Assembly: GCA_031288595.1 (NCBI GenBank)
Contig: JAITRB010000003.1
Location: forward strand, 27,861-91,860
From: Puniceicoccales bacterium
GTDB taxonomy: Bacteria; Verrucomicrobiota; Verrucomicrobiia; Opitutales; JAIRLG01
Reading direction: 5' to 3'
DNA length: 64,000 nucleotides
A program made the position numbers and the translations under genes. Below the pieces are notes generated by a model. The model was not told where the DNA came from. It saw only the letters and a program-made list of their open reading frames with translations, and did not search any database. This document shows positions 2,865-50,135 of the stretch, piece after piece (position 1 is the first letter of the stretch; the number at the start of each line of letters is the position of its first letter).

Positions 2865-5800
2865 ATGGGAAGGGGGAAACAAACATACGCGCCCAGTGGG
2901 GGATTTTCGATGCTCCTGGTGCTGAGCTCGATCACGGTTCTGCTGCTCTGGATCATTTTCATCAATTTCTGCTCGGTCTTTGTCCGTGAACGCCAGCAGA
3001 AACATCGCTCCCATGAGCGTTTGCAGCTATGCGCGGAGTATGCGCTTCAAGATGCCCTGCAGCACCTGCAGTCCGCCGCCGCAGCGGACCAAAGGGTAAG
3101 CGCCAGGGCAGAGATTTTTGATGCTACGGATGATGGGGTGCCGGAATCACAGCGCCTCTGGACGGGGGTCTGGCGTACGGAGCTGGAAGGGAGGGTGCAG
3201 GATACTCCCCAATTCTTCTCCTGGTTGGTCTCCCATCCCCATGAAGCGGGTGCTTGCCAATACATCCACAACGAGGCTTTTCCCCGCACTCAGCTGGAGG
3301 ATAAGAACAGCTATGCCTGGTCTTCCGATGAATGGAATTCTCCGCAGGTGATTCGCGCGCCCTGGGTCGACATAAGGGACAGCGAATCCCATCTCATCGG
3401 TCGCTATGCCTATTGGATCGAAGATGAGAGCCAGAAGGCGTGCTGCACGCTGCCACATCGGGAAAATTTGGAGGCCGAGGTGCTGCGTTCCTGTCCTCCG
3501 CAGAACGGCACTGACTTTCTGGATGGATTGTCGAGATTTCCCCAGAGTTCGCCGCAGTTGTCCTCCTGCGAGACATTGGAAGAGCTCGAGGCTCGGCATC
3601 CGGATTTTCAGGTGACGGGCAGTGACAATCCTTCCATCCGCAGCTTGCGTTTCTATGAACATGATTTAAGCTGCTGCTCCAAGGGGCTTTTGACGGACTC
3701 CTGCAACGGAGGATTCAGAAAAGACCTGACAGCTTTCTTTCAAGAGGCTGCGCCTGCTCCTCCCTATCCGGCGCTGACGGAGGAGATTTTTCGCGTCGAA
3801 AATGCAGATCCCGAACCGGCGCCGAGCTGGGGAATCCTGAGAAATTTTGCCCGATTGGGCGAAGGGGTTGTTTCGGGAAAACGGGAAGCTCAACTGGCGA
3901 CCAAAACCTATACCCCCATCGATTACAAGGATTACAGCTCCTGGCAGCGCAGCGATCTACCCCGAGAGGAACTGCAGATTCCCGAAGTCTCTCCGCTGGC
4001 TCCCATCATCACTCATTTTTCCCTACTCATACGCGTGAAGAAAATGGCCTTGGATACTTCCTCTGGAAATGGGAGCCTTCGCTTCGAGTTCATCCCGCAG
4101 CTGACGCTCTACAATCCGCACAACGTCACCCTGAATCCCCGCACCTATCGCTTCAGTTATAAGAGCCTGAAGGACAGGACCCCTCAGGCAGCGATAAGGG
4201 CCGTTCTTTTGAGTCCTGGCACTGCAGAGGAATCTAGGGTTACCCTGGCGCTTGGCGGTGCTTCGGGTATATTTTGGGAACTGCTCTCCTGCACCGCGAG
4301 TGTTGGGGAATTACCGGCCGGACAATCGGTGACTATGGGTTTAGGAGATTCCTGGCCATCGACGGAGATGAATGGCGGAAAAGCATTGCTGAGCGGAGGG
4401 CAGGGGGCATTTACCCATGACTGGAATTTCAGGCTGCAGGATATTTCGCCATGGTGGGCCATGTCTCTCTCCTCTTTTGCACTCGTTGTAGAACGCATCC
4501 CTGGTATTACTGCGGGGAGTGGAAGCATGAGCAATGGCTGGCAGCACTTCTACCTCTTTCTTCAGGACGAAACGTCACTGGCGCAGGAAGTGGCCAAGGT
4601 GCAGATCGAGGATGGTTCATCGAGTGCCCCCAAGAGTGTGGAACAGAAGCTGCTCTCGATGCCGCTCGATATGTCCTCTGTGCCGCTCTTCGGTCTGTCG
4701 GCCTGCCTCAAATCCGATCGAGAGGTGGATTGCAGCGGCAATAACGGCATGCGCTGGCTGGCGGAGGGCAATCCCCGCGCTTCATGGATGGGCCGTTCCC
4801 AGCTTCAGGATGGGGACTATATGGCTCCCAATCCCATGATTCCCGCAATTGGCAATGCCGGACTTTCCAACTGGCACTGGTCAGCCAAGTGGTTGCCGAC
4901 AGACAATCTTTCCAATTTGAATGTCCTGCCTCCAGGAAATAGTTTTTCTGGCATCCTCTTTGATATTCCCCGTAAGGATTTCGGTGTTTTGAATCTAGCC
5001 TTTCTGCAGCACGCCAACGTCACGCCCTTCGGCTATCATCCGGCCTATGCCATCGGCAATTCCCTACAAGCACCGCGCATCGCGAGAGAGGCTGCTTTTC
5101 GAAAAAATTCTGCCGGCCCGCTGTGGGTTTCGCACTGCAAGGTGGAAATGCTCTACGATTACTCTTACCTGCTCAATCGGGCCCTCTGGGACAGCTATTT
5201 CCTCTCGGCTGTAAGGGATGGGAAATCGCTCAACCCGCGTCTATGGCCCTGGAAGGTGAAGGAAGATTTAGGCAATATTCTCAATCCCTGGAATGATAGG
5301 GCCTCCAGGCTTTACATCCGCGGCGCGTTCAATGTTCACAGTACGTCAGTATCCGCCTGGTTTGCGGTGCTCTGCGGGCTCTACGACTCCAGGGAGGATA
5401 AGGTCTCTTTCGGAAGATTTCCAGGCAAGAGCACGGGAAGGATTCAGCTCTCCCGGGATCAGTTATGGTCGTTGGCAGAGGGAATTGTCGTGGAGGTGAA
5501 GCGGCGCGGCGTTGTTTCCGGACTCTCCGATTTCATCAACCGCAGATTGGTCGATAAAAATTCTCCCCAAGCGGCCCAGGGCCTGAAGGGGGCGTTACAG
5601 ACGGCCATCGATGCGAGTCTGCACGGCGCTGAAGTGCAGGTAAATTCCACTAGGGACATGGCCGGTTTTGACGACGAGGCGGCCAGCGGCGATCGGTCAT
5701 TTGGCAGAGCGGACTACCTGACGCAGGCGGATCTCCTGCAGTCGCTGGGAACTTTTCTGACGGCCAGGGGAGACAGCTTTACGATTCATGTCTGCACTGA

Positions 5801-5939
5801 GCTGCTCAGTCCGCAGGGGCAGAAGATCCGCGGTCTTCGTGCCGATGTGAAGGCGCAGAGAATGCCGGACTACCTAGATCCGAGCCATCCGCAGCAGGGA
5901 CGAAGGTTCATCTTACGCCCTGTTCGCTGGTCGAGATAG
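2865..5939 (+). CDS. Large (about 1010-1024 aa) membrane-anchored protein with a GspK/pseudopilin-like N-terminal hydrophobic segment; function unknown
   Basis: The N-terminus ...GGFSMLLVLSSITVLLLWIIF is a prepilin-like segment without Glu+5. The motif RYAYWIEDESQKA recalls large verrucomicrobial 'cassette protein A'/GspK-like proteins (from memory, not verified). Confidence 0.45.
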   Translation: MGRGKQTYAPSGGFSMLLVLSSITVLLLWIIFINFCSVFVRERQQKHRSHERLQLCAEYALQDALQHLQSAAAADQRVSARAEIFDATDDGVPESQRLWTGVWRTELEGRVQDTPQFFSWLVSHPHEAGACQYIHNEAFPRTQLEDKNSYAWSSDEWNSPQVIRAPWVDIRDSESHLIGRYAYWIEDESQKACCTLPHRENLEAEVLRSCPPQNGTDFLDGLSRFPQSSPQLSSCETLEELEARHPDFQVTGSDNPSIRSLRFYEHDLSCCSKGLLTDSCNGGFRKDLTAFFQEAAPAPPYPALTEEIFRVENADPEPAPSWGILRNFARLGEGVVSGKREAQLATKTYTPIDYKDYSSWQRSDLPREELQIPEVSPLAPIITHFSLLIRVKKMALDTSSGNGSLRFEFIPQLTLYNPHNVTLNPRTYRFSYKSLKDRTPQAAIRAVLLSPGTAEESRVTLALGGASGIFWELLSCTASVGELPAGQSVTMGLGDSWPSTEMNGGKALLSGGQGAFTHDWNFRLQDISPWWAMSLSSFALVVERIPGITAGSGSMSNGWQHFYLFLQDETSLAQEVAKVQIEDGSSSAPKSVEQKLLSMPLDMSSVPLFGLSACLKSDREVDCSGNNGMRWLAEGNPRASWMGRSQLQDGDYMAPNPMIPAIGNAGLSNWHWSAKWLPTDNLSNLNVLPPGNSFSGILFDIPRKDFGVLNLAFLQHANVTPFGYHPAYAIGNSLQAPRIAREAAFRKNSAGPLWVSHCKVEMLYDYSYLLNRALWDSYFLSAVRDGKSLNPRLWPWKVKEDLGNILNPWNDRASRLYIRGAFNVHSTSVSAWFAVLCGLYDSREDKVSFGRFPGKSTGRIQLSRDQLWSLAEGIVVEVKRRGVVSGLSDFINRRLVDKNSPQAAQGLKGALQTAIDASLHGAEVQVNSTRDMAGFDDEAASGDRSFGRADYLTQADLLQSLGTFLTARGDSFTIHVCTELLSPQGQKIRGLRADVKAQRMPDYLDPSHPQQGRRFILRPVRWSR

Positions 5940-25952: not shown

Positions 25953-27392
25953 TTAAAACTGCTGCCTTTCGGACGAAAGGGCTTGTATTTTCCTATAAAG
26001 TGTTCTACGGCTGATTCCCAGCCTCTGGGCCGCCAGGGTTTTATTGCCCCTGCTCTCTTCCAGTGCCTTCTGCAGGCACTGTGGGTTCAGCCTTTCCTGA
26101 TGGTCTTCCAGATAGATGGATCGTGCGAGGGGAACGAGTTCGGGTGGATGGGGACTCCGGTCGGGCAGCTGTCCGAGGAATTTTGGATCCAGGTCTCCCC
26201 GCTCGATGATGTAGCGGTGTTCCGGCAGGAGAATCGCAGCGCTCTCGCAAGTGTGGCGCAGCTCGCGGATATTGCCCGGCCAGAAGTAGTGCTGCAGCGC
26301 GTCGATGGCATCGGACGAGAAGTGCAATTGTCTTCCGATACCGTTTTCAAAGCAGGCCTTTTGCAGGTAAAAATCCAACAGCAACGGGATGTCCATGGGC
26401 CGTTCCCGCAGGGCAGGAAGAGACAATTTGACGACGTGAAGGCGGTAGTAGAGGTCTTCCCGAAAACTTCCTTCACGTATCATGGCTTCGAGGGAACGGT
26501 GAGTGGCGGTGATGAGGCGGACGTCCAGGGACAAGGGCTCCGTGCTCCCGACGCGCTCGATTTGCAGGGTTTCGATGAAGCGCAGCAGTTTGACCTGAGT
26601 CTGAAGGTTGATCTCCCCGATCTCATCGAGAAAAATCGTGCCGCCATGGGCCCGTTCGAAATAGCCCACGTGGCGGTTCATCGCTCCGGTGAAGGCCCCG
26701 CGCTCGTGGCCGAACAGTTCGCTCTCCAGCAGGGTTTCCGACAATGCCGCGCAGTGCACCGTCACCATAGGCCCCGAGGCCCGAGGACTGTTGTAGTGGA
26801 TCCAGTGGGCGAAGACCTCCTTGCCGGTACCGGTCTCTCCTTGCAACAGTATACTGGCCTGCGTTCTGGCTACCTGGGTCGCCTTTTGCTGCAGGGAGAC
26901 GAGTGGCGAGTCCGGTGCACAGAGAAGATTTCCCTGTCGGGAAGCGGGCGATCGGGTCTGATGGCGAAGGGGATTTTCCGGAAGAAGAATGACCGGCTTC
27001 TCCTCCTCAGGAATCGAGGATTTCCTGGACCTTTTCCCTTCCACCGCCTGGAGTAGGACAATGCGCAGGTTCTCGAGGTTCAGGGGTTTGCTGAGGAAAT
27101 CGAAGGCACCTCTCTTCATCGCCTTGACCACCGTTTCTACGTCCCCACGGGCGCTCATGAGGACACAGGTCGGTTCCGGTGAGAGGCGGTGCAGGAGCTC
27201 GAGCAGTTTCAGCCCGTCATGAGCCTGTCGGAGGCAGAGCTCGCTCAGCACGACATCGATGCTCTCCTTATGCAGCCAGAATTCCGCCTCTTCCAGGCAA
27301 GTGGCTGAGTAAATGTCCCAGGAATCCTGAAAGGCAGCTTTTAAGAGCTCTTGGGTTTTCTTCTCTCCGTCGACCAGGAGCAGCTTCCGCAT
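25953..27392 (-). CDS. Sigma-54-dependent transcriptional activator (NtrC family) with atypical receiver domain
   Basis: It has a receiver (MRKLLLVDGEKK...DVVLSELCL...SKP), an AAA+ domain (GETGTGKEVFA, GAFTGA, TIFLDEIGE) and a Fis-type HTH (AAQRLGISRRTLYRKI). The start is moved to ATG 27392. Confidence 0.85.
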   Translation of the reverse strand: MRKLLLVDGEKKTQELLKAAFQDSWDIYSATCLEEAEFWLHKESIDVVLSELCLRQAHDGLKLLELLHRLSPEPTCVLMSARGDVETVVKAMKRGAFDFLSKPLNLENLRIVLLQAVEGKRSRKSSIPEEEKPVILLPENPLRHQTRSPASRQGNLLCAPDSPLVSLQQKATQVARTQASILLQGETGTGKEVFAHWIHYNSPRASGPMVTVHCAALSETLLESELFGHERGAFTGAMNRHVGYFERAHGGTIFLDEIGEINLQTQVKLLRFIETLQIERVGSTEPLSLDVRLITATHRSLEAMIREGSFREDLYYRLHVVKLSLPALRERPMDIPLLLDFYLQKACFENGIGRQLHFSSDAIDALQHYFWPGNIRELRHTCESAAILLPEHRYIIERGDLDPKFLGQLPDRSPHPPELVPLARSIYLEDHQERLNPQCLQKALEESRGNKTLAAQRLGISRRTLYRKIQALSSERQQF

Positions 27393-27414
27393 ATCGGTGC
27401 ACAGGGGTGAGGGA

Positions 27415-28065
27415 TTATTCCTCATCCTCGTCATTTTCATCGTCTTTCTCGATGTCCCGACAGTTGGTCATGACGCGCAGCCATACCTCCCGCAGATCGA
27501 AACAGGCCAGAATGGCATCCTGCAGGAGCAACTTGGCCTTTTCGGAATTCCCTGGTGCCTTTTGGATCAAGCCCATGCTGTAATTGATGCTCTGGAGTGC
27601 CGATTTGAAGTGGCAGATGGCCAGAACGGGGTCATCGGCATCCATGCAGGCAATGCCGAGGAGGGCATCGTGTTCCCCGCTGCCCAACAAGCGGGCGTAG
27701 ACCCAGGACATCTGGAGATTCTGATCCCCGCTGCATTCCTGGTAAAGTTCCCAGTTCTTATAGAGAAAGTGATAGAGCCCGTGCGTGACGATGTAGACCG
27801 GATGTTTGTGCAGCGTTTGTGGGCCTTCTCGCCAGCGCTTCTGCAAAATAGCCTCGATGGAATTATCTTCCTGCTGCGTCCAGCCCATCTGGAGGGCGAT
27901 GAGGTCCAGGTGGTTGATGATTTGTCTTAACTGGACGAATTTCTTGAGAAACAGGGTCGTTTCCACATCGATCTGTGTGAGATAGCGCCGCCAGTCAGCT
28001 TCATTCCAATCATCGGCCGAAAACTCACCCCCATCCCGTGCGCCGTATTCCCCTTCGAAACCCAT
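27415..28065 (-). CDS. Hypothetical protein with acidic C-terminus, upstream of the sigma-54 activator
   Basis: This is a 216-aa ORF. It ends 22 nt before the revised activator start. I recognise no family. Confidence 0.5.
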   Translation of the reverse strand: MGFEGEYGARDGGEFSADDWNEADWRRYLTQIDVETTLFLKKFVQLRQIINHLDLIALQMGWTQQEDNSIEAILQKRWREGPQTLHKHPVYIVTHGLYHFLYKNWELYQECSGDQNLQMSWVYARLLGSGEHDALLGIACMDADDPVLAICHFKSALQSINYSMGLIQKAPGNSEKAKLLLQDAILACFDLREVWLRVMTNCRDIEKDDENDEDEE

Positions 28066-36205: not shown

Positions 36206-36365
36206 GACTGAGAGCATCCCCAAAGCCTTATAAGGAGAACAAGTGAAGACTTCCCTCTCCGAAGAGAATCGGGCAGAGGAGTACTTTTATTAAAATCACA
36301 CTTTTTTCCGCCACTTCACGTTTTACGAAAGTTTGCTCGTTGTTTCATTAATACTTTTCAGCCTT

Positions 36366-37664
36366 ATGCTGGAATTGCGCTCGGGGCAGATTCAAATTCA
36401 GCGGCAGGTCATGGTTCCGGCTCTGGTCCATTCACTGCATTATCTGCAGTTGCCGTGGCCGGAGCTAGAACTGGAGCTGCGGCAGCTCTGGGAAAGCAAC
36501 CCGTGTATCGACCTCATCGTTTCACCGAGAGAGGAGGGAGAAATGGGCTGCAGAGCGGCTCCGGCGACGAGAGAAGGGAGATGGGAGGAGAATCTAGCTG
36601 CTCAGGAGTCGTTGGAGAACCATCTGGCCCGTCAGGTGCCGGAGCTGGGAGAGGAGGAGAAGAAAATTTTTTCCTTCCTCATCTCGCATCTGGACGAGCG
36701 CGGCTATCTGAAGGGATCAACGGAAGAGCTGGCTCGAGCAAGTCCCTGGACGGCTGAGAACCTGGAATCCGTGCGGGAGATCCTATGTTCGCTGGAACCT
36801 AAAGGGATCGGAGCCCGGGATATCGTCGATTGCTGGCTGGCGCAGATGGCGAAAGAGCGGGCCCCGCTACGGGAATTTCTGCTGCTCAATCGGGATGACC
36901 TTCTGGCCAAGCGCTATGGCCGCATTCTTCGGCGGATGCATTGGGATCGTCGACAGCTGGCTCATGCCTTGCAGGGATTGCGCAGCTTGGCGACGGCCCC
37001 ACTGAGGACTTGGCAGGAGAATGAGGCTGTACTGCGCATGCCTGATCTCTATTTTTCAAAGGACGGGACTGGAAACTGGAATTTGCACCTGGCCTCAGAA
37101 TCCTATACGCTGCGCTGGAGCGAGGGGTACAAGGATTGGTTGGCCGATGAGGAGCAGCGGAGCGACCGAAGGGCCATGGCCTATTTTCGTACCCAGCGGC
37201 AGCTGGCCAAGCGCTGGATGCACGCGCTATCGCGGCGAACGGCGACGTTGCGGCGTATCGGCGAGTTTATTTTGAAGGAGCAGCGCCCGTTCTTCGAGGA
37301 GGAAGATCATCCGCTGCGAGCCTGCTCCCAGAAAGATGCGGCGGGAGAGCTGGGGCTGAATCCAGCTACGCTCTGTCGAGCCCTGCGGGATAAGTACGCT
37401 GCCTTGCCCTGGGGAACGCTGGCTCTGGTCGATTTTTTCCCGGGCTCCTGGAGGGGCAGCGGCTCGGATATCCCCATCCCGCAGATTCGCCAGAAGCTCG
37501 ACGAGTGGATTGCGGAGGAGGACAAAGAGGATCCTTTGAGCGATAGGGTCCTTGCGAAAAGATTTCGGGAGGAGATGGGTTGGCCCATTCCCCGTCGAAC
37601 CGTGGAAGCCTATCGCCGGCGCTGGGGGATTGCCTCTGCCAACGACCGCAGATATGGCCTGTAG
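36366..37664 (+). CDS. rpoN: RNA polymerase sigma-54 factor
   Basis: It has the region I MLELRSGQIQIQRQVMVPAL and a C-terminal RpoN box, PRRTVEAYRRRWGI. The start is moved to ATG 36366. Confidence 0.85.
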   Translation: MLELRSGQIQIQRQVMVPALVHSLHYLQLPWPELELELRQLWESNPCIDLIVSPREEGEMGCRAAPATREGRWEENLAAQESLENHLARQVPELGEEEKKIFSFLISHLDERGYLKGSTEELARASPWTAENLESVREILCSLEPKGIGARDIVDCWLAQMAKERAPLREFLLLNRDDLLAKRYGRILRRMHWDRRQLAHALQGLRSLATAPLRTWQENEAVLRMPDLYFSKDGTGNWNLHLASESYTLRWSEGYKDWLADEEQRSDRRAMAYFRTQRQLAKRWMHALSRRTATLRRIGEFILKEQRPFFEEEDHPLRACSQKDAAGELGLNPATLCRALRDKYAALPWGTLALVDFFPGSWRGSGSDIPIPQIRQKLDEWIAEEDKEDPLSDRVLAKRFREEMGWPIPRRTVEAYRRRWGIASANDRRYGL

Positions 37665-47817: not shown

Positions 47818-48291
47818 CTAAAGTCCGTCTGGGGAATGAAGGAGTCTTCCCAGAATCCCGATACCCTCCGCCATGCTGCTGTTTTCAATTTCAATACTAC
47901 CTAAAAGCTCGGCAGGGGCGATGTTTTCTCCTTCGAGAAGCGAAATTTCTTTCTGGAAGGGGACCTCGGCTATTCCTTCCTCAAGGTATTTCTGCAGGAT
48001 CTCCAGAAGGTCTGTTTCCCGTTGAATGATGGATTCTCCGTCGGCGTAGCCGCGTTGGCCCCAAAATTGCGCGATCTCATCTTCTGGGCTCTTCTATATC
48101 TCCAGTATTTGGCTCTCTTGCTCTTCTTCTCTTGGAGAATCAAGCTTGGCTGGGAGAAGGCTAAAATTTCTCGCAGGCACCTGCGACCCTCTTGTTAAAA
48201 GGGATCCTTTCCCATCCATCCCCAATGACCTTGGCGAGAACGAGCAGTGCACTTGTCTCCTGAGTGAGCTCTCCAGGGAAACAGTTCGCAC
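47818..48291 (-). pseudogene. Minus-strand frame of about 157 codons interrupted by an in-frame TAG (48094-48096); product unknown
   Basis: The 65-aa track ORF (48094..48291) is followed in the same frame by 91 further sense codons. These read KSPEDEIAQFWGQRGYADGES...EILQKYLEEGIAEVPFQKE...HSPDGL and contain no ATG, GTG or TTG start. Confidence 0.3.
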
Positions 48292-48611: not shown

Positions 48612-50135
48612 ATGGCGATGGGCAGGAAGAGAGATCGGGATACGGGAGATACTTTCACCCATCGGACTAAAAATCTCTACGGCGGGATTGTGGCCAATCC
48701 TCTCTCCCTGAGCGAATCCCGGCGCTGGGGCGATATTGGCCGCTCTTCCCGAAAATTCCTGCAGTACCTCTCGGCCCTTGGAACATCCTTTTGGAGGATT
48801 TCCGAACATCCTCCAGGGACTCTCTTTTCAGGAGAGAGGGGAGCTCACTCTCAAGGCATCTGGTCCTCTGCATTGGCTCCCAATCCTCTCTATGTCGACG
48901 CTCTAGATCTATACGAATGGGGCTTATGGACAGCGGAAGAAAGAGATTTTTTCGAGGCTTATGCGGGGAGTGATTGGCCGAGCTACGCCGCCGTGAAAGA
49001 TTATCTCCTGCGCCTGGCGGCACGGAGATTTTCCTATCGGGCGTCCGGGGAATTGATGGTGGAATTTCTGTCCTTTTCCAAAACTGAGAAGGAATGGCTG
49101 GAACCCTATGGCCTATTCCAGTCCATCCATCGCGCTTTGGGAAAGCGTCCCTGGCAGAATTGGCCCGAGGCATTGAAGTGGAAGCATAAAAGAGCAATGG
49201 ATGTGAGCAAATGGCAATTGTCGGAAGCCATGCAGGTCGAACGCCTGTTGCAGTTCTTCTTTTATCGGCAATGGAGCTCATTGCGCACCATGGCTAAAAA
49301 TCTTGGCATTTCTCTCATCCCATCCATCCCCCTCTGGCTCGATGAGTCCATGGCCGACTTATGGTTGGAGGCGAAATTCTTTTCCCTCGACTCTCGGGGA
49401 CATCCAAATATCCGGGTGCTTCCCCAGAGCCAAAGAGAGAGAAGCTCGAAATCTCTGCCCCTCTACCACGCTTATCGCTGGCAGCGCATGGCGGAGGACC
49501 ATTATGCTTGGTGGGGGAGGCGCGTGCAGATCCTTGGCCAGCACTGCGATGCGCTGTACCTCAGCGATTTCCATGATCTCCTGCGTCACGCCGAAATTTC
49601 TCTGATGGCGGAGGGCAATATAAAGGATGATAGCGCCTACGTCGCTGGGCCTGGAGTTGCCTTTTTCCAGGTCCTGCAATTCCGCTCAGGCCACAAGCTC
49701 TGCATCGCAGATCCGAAAGATCCGAAGACAGAACCCCTCAGTTCCTCGGTGGAGTGGACCTCTCTGCGCGATGTCCTGTCGAGCTTTTGGTGCGAACGGG
49801 ACTCCGAGTCTCCCATGGGGGAATTGGCTGGGGAAGTCCCTGCAAAGGATGCTTTTCGGTGGGTTCAGCTCTTATGCCCCATGGAACAGAAAAGGCCCAC
49901 TTCGGGAAAAAGCATCGCCCGCATCTTTCAGAAATACGGACCTTGGAGCAAGGCGCTTAAGGGTGTTCTTGATCTTGGGAAACTCCGTCTCCTGCAGCGC
50001 TGGGGAAAGTGGCGCCATAAGCAATTTTTTGGTCTGCCTCTCTACCTTCGCCTCCAACGCCTCAGGATTGCCTGTTCGCGCTTGATGCCTTACCTCAAGA
50101 CCTGCATCCGGAAGATTTCCAAGAGAGATAGCTAG
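48612..50135 (+). CDS. Divergent GH77 4-alpha-glucanotransferase (MalQ)-like protein
   Basis: It follows the MalQ-like pattern: YGGIVANPLSLSES..WGDIG...FLQYL, ERLLQFFFYRQWSSLRTMAKNLGISLI, and YAWWGRRVQILGQHCDALYLSDFHD. The motifs are poorly conserved. Confidence 0.5.
   Translation: MAMGRKRDRDTGDTFTHRTKNLYGGIVANPLSLSESRRWGDIGRSSRKFLQYLSALGTSFWRISEHPPGTLFSGERGAHSQGIWSSALAPNPLYVDALDLYEWGLWTAEERDFFEAYAGSDWPSYAAVKDYLLRLAARRFSYRASGELMVEFLSFSKTEKEWLEPYGLFQSIHRALGKRPWQNWPEALKWKHKRAMDVSKWQLSEAMQVERLLQFFFYRQWSSLRTMAKNLGISLIPSIPLWLDESMADLWLEAKFFSLDSRGHPNIRVLPQSQRERSSKSLPLYHAYRWQRMAEDHYAWWGRRVQILGQHCDALYLSDFHDLLRHAEISLMAEGNIKDDSAYVAGPGVAFFQVLQFRSGHKLCIADPKDPKTEPLSSSVEWTSLRDVLSSFWCERDSESPMGELAGEVPAKDAFRWVQLLCPMEQKRPTSGKSIARIFQKYGPWSKALKGVLDLGKLRLLQRWGKWRHKQFFGLPLYLRLQRLRIACSRLMPYLKTCIRKISKRDS

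Follow-up and report, generated by a model that had tools for sequence, protein, structure and literature searches.

Receiver domains that are recognised as such but lack the phospho-acceptor aspartate, known as aspartate-less receivers or pseudo-receivers, are common, with glutamate the leading replacement (26%; PMC4395418). The second acidic residue of the pocket is usually lost in them and the lysine usually kept, and almost all of those studied are orphans (PMC4395418, PMC12632262); how they are switched on and off is largely a mystery (PMC12632262). Among sigma-54 activators of the NtrC family, FlbD of Caulobacter crescentus has a degenerate receiver and no kinase and is set by direct binding of FliX (PMC3096577), and in the pairs PspF-PspA, HrpS-HrpV, FleQ-FleN and NifA-NifL a protein that is usually encoded next door, not a kinase, acts on the AAA+ domain (PMC3105312, PMC8528422, PMC12998190). 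In NtrC itself, glutamate at the acceptor site (D54E) partly mimics phospho-aspartate and activates the protein, according to the account of Klose et al. (1993) given in PMC4395418. Here we set beside these systems a locus from a 64,000-nucleotide stretch of contig JAITRB010000003.1 of a Puniceicoccales bacterium (hereafter the window), in which an NtrC-family activator carries a glutamate, Glu51, at the acceptor position and lies directly downstream of a gene for an uncharacterised protein, here called up216 (Table 1). The activator is likely to be a kinase-independent member of the family with a pseudo-receiver, possibly controlled by up216; it is not a new mechanism, and its kind is already known.

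Like ChxR (Glu), RitR (Asn), FleQ and the plant pseudo-response regulators (Glu), the window protein has a receiver fold in which the acceptor aspartate is replaced, but here the pseudo-receiver drives a sigma-54 AAA+ motor; it differs from other aspartate-less receivers also in that Asp, Glu and Asn are all found among the positional orthologs of one small clade, so that the loss can be followed with unusual clarity. The laboratory mutant NtrC D54E has a pocket that is otherwise intact, whereas the window receiver has in addition lost an Mg-binding Asp and has an altered β3-α3 loop and linker. The closest functional precedent is FlbD-FliX, and the parallel extends to genes of the flagellar or type III export type, for FliN and FliP, that also lie in the window. 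However, up216 shows no similarity to FliX (no Pfam or NCBIfam match at E ≤ 0.01) and is encoded in the same operon as the activator, and its interaction with the activator is putative.

The open reading frame (ORF) of the activator (25953-27440, minus strand) matches Response_reg, Sigma54_activat (PF00158, 3.7e-66), AAA_lid_14 and HTH_8 in Pfam, and its start at 27392 (MRKLLLVDGE) is that of the orthologs P0003, P0004 and P0005. The protein is 100% identical to P0001, labelled ‘MAG: Puniceicoccales bacterium’ (Verrucomicrobiota; MAG, metagenome-assembled genome), and in NCBIfam it comes closest to AtoC and NtrC, though far under the equivalog cut-off of either. Walker A (GETGTGKE) and Walker B (FLDEIGE) align to those of ZraR and NtrC1, and the AAA+ motor, including the GAFTGA loop, and the helix-turn-helix domain are intact. 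With both Sigma54_activat and HTH_8 present and rpoN in the same genome, the protein is an NtrC-family sigma-54 enhancer-binding protein. The nearby rpoN had been pointed out in an earlier reading made from the sequence alone (the sequence-only reading), and its identity was confirmed by Sigma54 AID, CBD and DBD domains; its ORF spans 36333-37664, and rpoN occupies the same relative position in the ortholog locus L005. Between the window gene and its 89% ortholog in L001, the ratio of nonsynonymous to synonymous substitution rates (dN/dS) was 0.21 for the receiver, 0.17 for the linker, 0.07 for the AAA+ domain (residues 166-395) and 0.16 for the C-terminus. These ratios indicate a receiver that is relaxed yet not neutral, its fold being under purifying selection, so that the fold still serves some purpose.

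The sequence-only reading had placed Glu51 at the position of the phosphorylated aspartate and had read the acidic pocket as VDGE, and both assignments held. In a phmmer comparison with Aquifex NtrC1 (1ny5/4l4u) the window segment VVLSELCLRQAHDGL aligned to VVLLDLLLPDV-NGL, and in a MAFFT alignment with Escherichia coli CheY, NtrC and twelve relatives the CheY residues D12, D13, D57, T87, Y106 and K109 corresponded to D8, G9, E51, S80, F99 and K102, respectively. No Asp stands in the acceptor column, and three independent alignments together with the Pfam detection of the receiver indicate that the column assignment for Glu51 is correct. The domain is thus not that of a canonical response regulator, having Glu51 for the acceptor Asp and D8-G9 for the Mg2+-binding acidic pair, and instead agrees with the definition of an aspartate-less receiver as a domain recognised as a receiver without the acceptor Asp (PMC4395418, PMC12632262), scoring 62.6 bits against PF00072 (cut-off 30.2) with Glu in the Asp column. 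The pocket motif is VDDEK in canonical relatives and VDGEK or VDGDK in the window clade; the switch residues Ser80, Phe99 and Lys102 are kept, and the MAFFT alignment shows a one-residue insertion in the β3-α3 loop, from which the usual M-P pair is gone. With 40 homologs as input, AlphaFold2 models the receiver as a regular (βα)5 fold of five strands and five helices (predicted local distance difference test, pLDDT, ~85-93), in which E51 is the last residue of β3 and the β3-α3 loop is of lower confidence.

The source is a metagenome-assembled genome, and a Glu codon created by a sequencing or assembly error, or a pseudogene, had to be considered. We regard the chance of this as negligible: the ORF is full-length with all motifs intact, every domain has a dN/dS far under 1, and the same Glu and Gly recur in two separately recovered relatives, P0002 (encoded on contigs from both JGI and Logan) and P0003, with the synonymous codon GAA in L001.

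A comparison of the site among orthologs, proposed with the sequence-only reading, gave Glu in P0002 and P0003, Asp in P0004 and Asn in P0005-8. The gene order Lactamase_B-MgsA-HhH_GPD-up216-activator-RpiB is common to L001, L003 and L005, with an uncharacterised protein of 216-218 residues in the up216 position, and the acceptor codon is GAG in the window, GAA in L001, GAC (Asp) in L003 and AAT (Asn) in L005. In P0005-P0008 (L005/L007, 10001-11563) the receiver is no longer detected by Pfam. The Asn lineage includes the assembly JAITIW01 and the Asp lineage the assembly JAIRRP01; isolate names among the relatives (Pcl387, Ct408) hint at a possible termite-gut source. The AAA+ domains of L003 (Asp) and L005 (Asn) share 94% identity, and each is 83-84% identical to its counterpart in the window. 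The Asp-bearing and Asn-bearing lineages therefore form a sister pair, and the change from Asp to Glu was separate from that to Asn. This comparison indicates that the acceptor was lost twice independently, as Glu here and as Asn in the sister lineage, by a single-base change each time.

More distant relatives retain the canonical state. All 77 other loci (35-47% identity), drawn from GTDB species representatives, have Asp at the acceptor, and 75 of them have the full D-D-D, the N-terminus lying outside the match in two of the 77. In 42 of the 77, a histidine kinase gene of the same strand ends no more than 60 nt before the activator gene, with a spacing of 9-53 nt (for example L052, 8782-9981, and L008, 5792-7000, among L008-L085 from Opitutales and related groups), and thus the ancestral arrangement was a kinase-regulator operon. 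The closest canonical relatives, a group of Opitutales NtrC/AtoC-like proteins (P0010, P0040 and P0063; 46-48% identity), share the REC-AAA+-HTH_8 architecture (REC, receiver) but have a canonical D-D-D-T-K pocket (in P0040 with a conservative Asp-to-Glu change of the first acidic residue), a short NtrC1-like linker, and a histidine kinase gene that precedes the activator by 9-53 nt where up216 stands here. It had been held that a cognate kinase beside the gene in Asp-keeping relatives would speak against kinase independence. This was not found for the Asp-keeping positional orthologs (P0004/L003 and the clade of L086 and L172), where the same uncharacterised gene lies upstream and the fetched flanks contain no kinase; it does apply to most of the distant (35-47%) relatives. 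The pattern speaks for a departure of the window lineage from a kinase-coupled ancestry, which appears well supported and strengthens, rather than weakens, kinase independence.

The earlier statement that no kinase is recognisable in the window also stood. A regular-expression search for the H-, N-, G1- and G2-boxes of histidine kinases in all six frames of the 64 kb found no match, and the best E-value over the same sequence was 1.7 for a 58-sequence hidden Markov model (HMM) built from the kinases in the fetched loci of relatives and seeded with E. coli NtrB. The fetched flanks of L001, L003, L005, L086 and L172 likewise contained no kinase. Orphan response regulators usually have their kinase elsewhere in the genome (PMC12632262), genome coverage was limited here to the 64 kb, and P0004 has a fully canonical pocket with no adjacent kinase, all of which could suit an activator that is still kinase-controlled, by an orphan kinase outside the window acting through Glu51 or another acidic residue, or by small phosphodonors. 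Such control is nevertheless very unlikely, as both the acceptor Asp and one Mg-binding Asp are replaced, the β3-α3 loop has its one-residue insertion and has lost the M-P pair, and no bacterial signalling by glutamate phosphorylation is known (PMC4395418); moreover, the sister lineage has lost the Asp, the Thr and the Lys, a pattern to be expected only once selection for phosphotransfer has ceased. That the activator is no longer switchable by phosphorylation thus appears well supported by the residues of the pocket.

The linker between receiver and AAA+ domain (residues 119-165) differs from that of the kinase-coupled relatives, with seven prolines and a pLDDT below 50 over residues 121-154 in the AlphaFold2 model. 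The relatives’ linker is ~30 residues shorter, proline-free (RRLQEENTVLHERLDKKYQF) and similar to that of NtrC1 (RKLRKENELLRREKDLKEEEYVF). Activators kept off by their receiver as long as it is unphosphorylated are marked by a structured coiled-coil linker, and unstructured linkers accompany positive or hybrid control (PMC10696123). The helical linker is missing from all of the up216-paired activators, including those that keep the Asp (P0004, L086 and L172). The regulatory rewiring likely came first and the decay of the phospho-site afterwards.

The product of the upstream gene had been described as an unknown acidic protein co-oriented with the activator, a description that fits what was found: up216 has an isoelectric point of 4.7, is encoded on the minus strand, and belongs to an uncharacterised family. 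It has no significant sequence match in the PDB and no fold match there by Foldseek (E ≤ 0.001), and the AlphaFold2 model is all-helical (pLDDT 82). The gene is strongly constrained, with a dN/dS of 0.027 between the window and L001 and 79-97% protein identity across the three orthologous loci, where it lies directly upstream of the activator. A full HMM scan placed 347 clusters at 50% identity in the family, and the invariant residues include W20, E22, W25, Y28, H86, H88, P89, C151, H152, C202 and the motif FDLREVW; in a word-indexed search every taxon-named match was from Verrucomicrobiota, mostly Opitutia. PspA is likewise about 220 residues long and all-helical. Despite this likeness in size and fold, up216 is not a PspA/IM30 protein, as it does not match PF04012 and no PspA/IM30-like structure was among the Foldseek PDB matches listed; it has no sequence homology to PspA, HrpV, FleN or NifL, in which its His/Cys signature is without counterpart.

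The pairing of up216 with sigma-54 activators extends beyond the close orthologs, which bears on the proposal that the two genes be examined for co-conservation. In all three orthologous groups up216 stands directly upstream of the activator, in the operon slot of the kinase in the relatives, and a second clade with different flanks, whose homolog is 50% identical to up216, has it 3 nt before the activator (L086) or overlapping the activator by 4 nt (L172). A different activator paralog, one that has no REC, immediately precedes the up216 homolog in L095-097 and L128 (with 3 nt between the end of the paralog’s ORF and the start of the homolog’s in L096), and at six further loci a third activator paralog is 2.5 kb away. 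The density of activators was ~20 per Mb near distant up216 homologs, compared with ~2 per Mb in the flanks of activator-centred loci, and no up216 homolog was found within 10 kb of the kinase-coupled relatives. The AAA+ domain is the only one common to the three types of neighbouring activator, and would thus be the likelier target if up216 binds.

The activators of the second clade (L086, 8001-9812; L172, 6001-7820) are HTH-less REC-AAA+ proteins with a canonical Asp pocket. L172 is from CP095464.1, a contig of 878,461 bp, and L086 from a related 757-kb scaffold; both are large contigs and possibly represent reduced genomes. This HTH-less architecture resembles that of chlamydial CtcC.

Upstream of several distant up216 homologs, by 50-85 nt, is a GG-N10-GC motif with the spacing of a sigma-54 -24/-12 promoter (CGGAATTTTATTTGC; L133, L149, L157, L159, L170 and L171), which occurred in 19 of 75 upstream regions compared with ~9 in shuffles. 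Some members of the family may thus be sigma-54 targets, like pspA. This bears on an alternative that we consider unlikely, in which the activator works in a purely constitutive way without any partner, its receiver is a vestige in decay, control is only by the activator's own expression, and up216 is merely co-transcribed and serves an unrelated process, or is itself a member of the sigma-54 regulon: such motifs could explain the proximity of the two genes without control of one protein by the other. The window up216 itself has no GG-N10-GC motif upstream, where a conserved TAAAAT box is present instead. That no other folded part of the activator evolves as fast as the receiver, and that in the sister lineage four of the five catalytic residues are gone, an insertion has been gained and Pfam fails to detect the receiver, would suit a vestige, but the dN/dS of 0.21 is that of purifying selection and not of neutral decay. 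Likewise, several up216 homologs adjoin a gene for a PhoD-like phosphatase and not an activator, yet the up216-activator pair has survived rearrangement of its flanks, down to a 4-nt overlap, and the family is found beside three different activator paralogs.

The reading of the protein as a kinase-independent activator, already put forward from the sequence, is supported by Glu51 and Gly9, by the lack of a kinase in the 64 kb and in the ortholog flanks, and by the second loss of the acceptor. If the receiver accepts no phosphoryl group, assembly of the ring and ATPase activity would escape gating by a kinase. In place of the structured linker by which activators of the NtrC1/DctD type are held off, there would be a long, proline-rich disordered one, and the receiver would therefore be unable to clamp the AAA+ domains. 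The conserved receiver fold would then probably act as a fixed, ‘on-like’ module for dimerisation and assembly, with Glu51, possibly a built-in phosphomimetic, in contact with Ser80 and Lys102. The level of expression would then determine activity, as would, most likely, the co-transcribed helical His/Cys protein up216. The linkage of up216 to the activator suggests that it is the new input, and its target would be the AAA+ domain, on the model of FliX-FlbD, PspA-PspF, HrpV-HrpS and FleN-FleQ. A more far-reaching proposal, possible though doubtful, is that up216 founds a new family of co-regulators of sigma-54 activators in Opitutia, which would take the slot of the kinase, bind the AAA+ domains of several paralogs and convey a metal or redox signal through HxH...CH...C; the phospho-site would then be dispensable, and hence have decayed twice.

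Several points weigh against kinase independence under the control of up216. The loss of phosphorylation is read from the residues of the pocket, the kinase search covered the 64-kb window and the flanks of the orthologs, so that an orphan kinase elsewhere is conceivable, and an Asp-to-Glu change alone is often insufficient for activation (PMC4395418, PMC12632262). Few independent lineages contribute to the enrichment of activators near up216 homologs; most of the fetched loci with such homologs (30-41% identity) have no activator in their flanks, which are often short, and in a few the phosphatase gene is directly downstream. The receiver evolves much faster than up216, which argues against its being the docking site of up216. 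Fully canonical pockets are found beside up216 in P0004 and in L086/L172, and up216 linkage alone thus does not imply kinase independence. Finally, the search of the window identified neither a sigma-54 promoter nor a target operon.

In one clade, the locus offers a natural series of canonical Asp, Glu, and Asn with decay of the receiver, on an unchanged AAA+ motor and beside the same conserved neighbour, so that a few constructs could test both phosphomimicry by Glu and up216 as a replacement for the kinase. The most interesting element is up216 itself, a conserved, uncharacterised His/Cys protein found repeatedly beside sigma-54 activators, and the linkage is a first functional lead for an unannotated family of ~350 clusters. 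For annotation, the activator gene should not be named a two-component response regulator.

Table 1. Features of the activator locus in the window and orthologs of the activator.
Feature	Position	Strand	Description
Sigma-54 enhancer-binding protein, 479 aa	25953..27392	-	Pseudo-receiver, disordered linker, AAA+ and HTH_8
Pseudo-receiver (REC), residues 1-118	27039..27392	-	PF00072, 4.6e-17; intact (βα)5 fold
REC-AAA+ linker, residues 119-165	26898..27038	-	7 prolines; predicted disordered
AAA+ sigma-54 interaction domain and lid	26157..26903	-	Walker A GETGTGKE, Walker B FLDEIGE
GAFTGA loop of the AAA+ domain (sigma-54 contact)	26682-26699	-	Intact
HTH_8 (Fis-type) DNA-binding domain	25980..26081	-	PF02954, 1.1e-13
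Glu51 codon	27240..27242	-	GAG, at the phospho-acceptor Asp position
Gly9 codon	27366..27368	-	GGA, in place of the second acidic Mg-binding residue (CheY D13 column)
up216, 216 aa	27415..28065	-	Candidate partner/co-regulator, co-transcribed upstream of the activator; uncharacterised family
rpoN (sigma-54)	36366..37664	+	Factor acted on by the activator; Sigma54_AID, CBD and DBD domains
P0002, P0003			88-89% identity to the window protein; Gly and Glu as in the window; P0002 gene in L001 uses GAA
P0004			68% identity to the window protein; canonical DD-D-T-K, acceptor GAC
P0005-8			60% identity to the window protein; Asn (AAT), Thr to Lys, Lys-Pro motif lost, ~14-residue insertion after β4

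A search of the window for TGGCAC-N5-TTGCW with up to two mismatches found 26 sites where 30 were expected, hence no enrichment, and no convincing intergenic site. The sole -24/-12-like match outside the called ORFs, TGGCCCCAAAATTGCG at 48056-48071 on the plus strand, lies ~550 nt upstream of the gene for a GH77 4-alpha-glucanotransferase (48612-50135), in a region that is poorly resolved, and was rejected. Autoregulation of the activator was likewise set aside, as no sigma-54 promoter is found upstream of up216 in the window or in the orthologs, which have a conserved TAAAAT-type box instead.

The flagellar-type genes of the window encode a FliN/SctQ-like protein (14756-15418) and FliP/SctR (15455-16111), both on the plus strand, in a group (14004-16111) with an unknown 246-aa ORF in front. 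The group lies between a phosphofructokinase gene and a tRNA-Pro gene and has the look of a fragment detached from a flagellar or type III export cluster. It could be a sigma-54 target, although no -24/-12 site turned up in front of it; a candidate site there was without the -12 GC and was rejected.

Elsewhere in the window, a 1024-aa ORF (2865-5939, plus strand) had no Pfam match. The dnaA gene (8815-10254, plus strand) encodes the N-terminal, AAA+ and C-terminal domains of DnaA, which may place the window close to the replication origin; cumulative GC skew showed no turning point at dnaA. Following it on the same strand, a single ORF (10293-11633) encodes LpxC fused to a FabA/FabZ-like dehydratase, and the next ORF encodes a putative LpxA, read from its N-terminal sequence alone.

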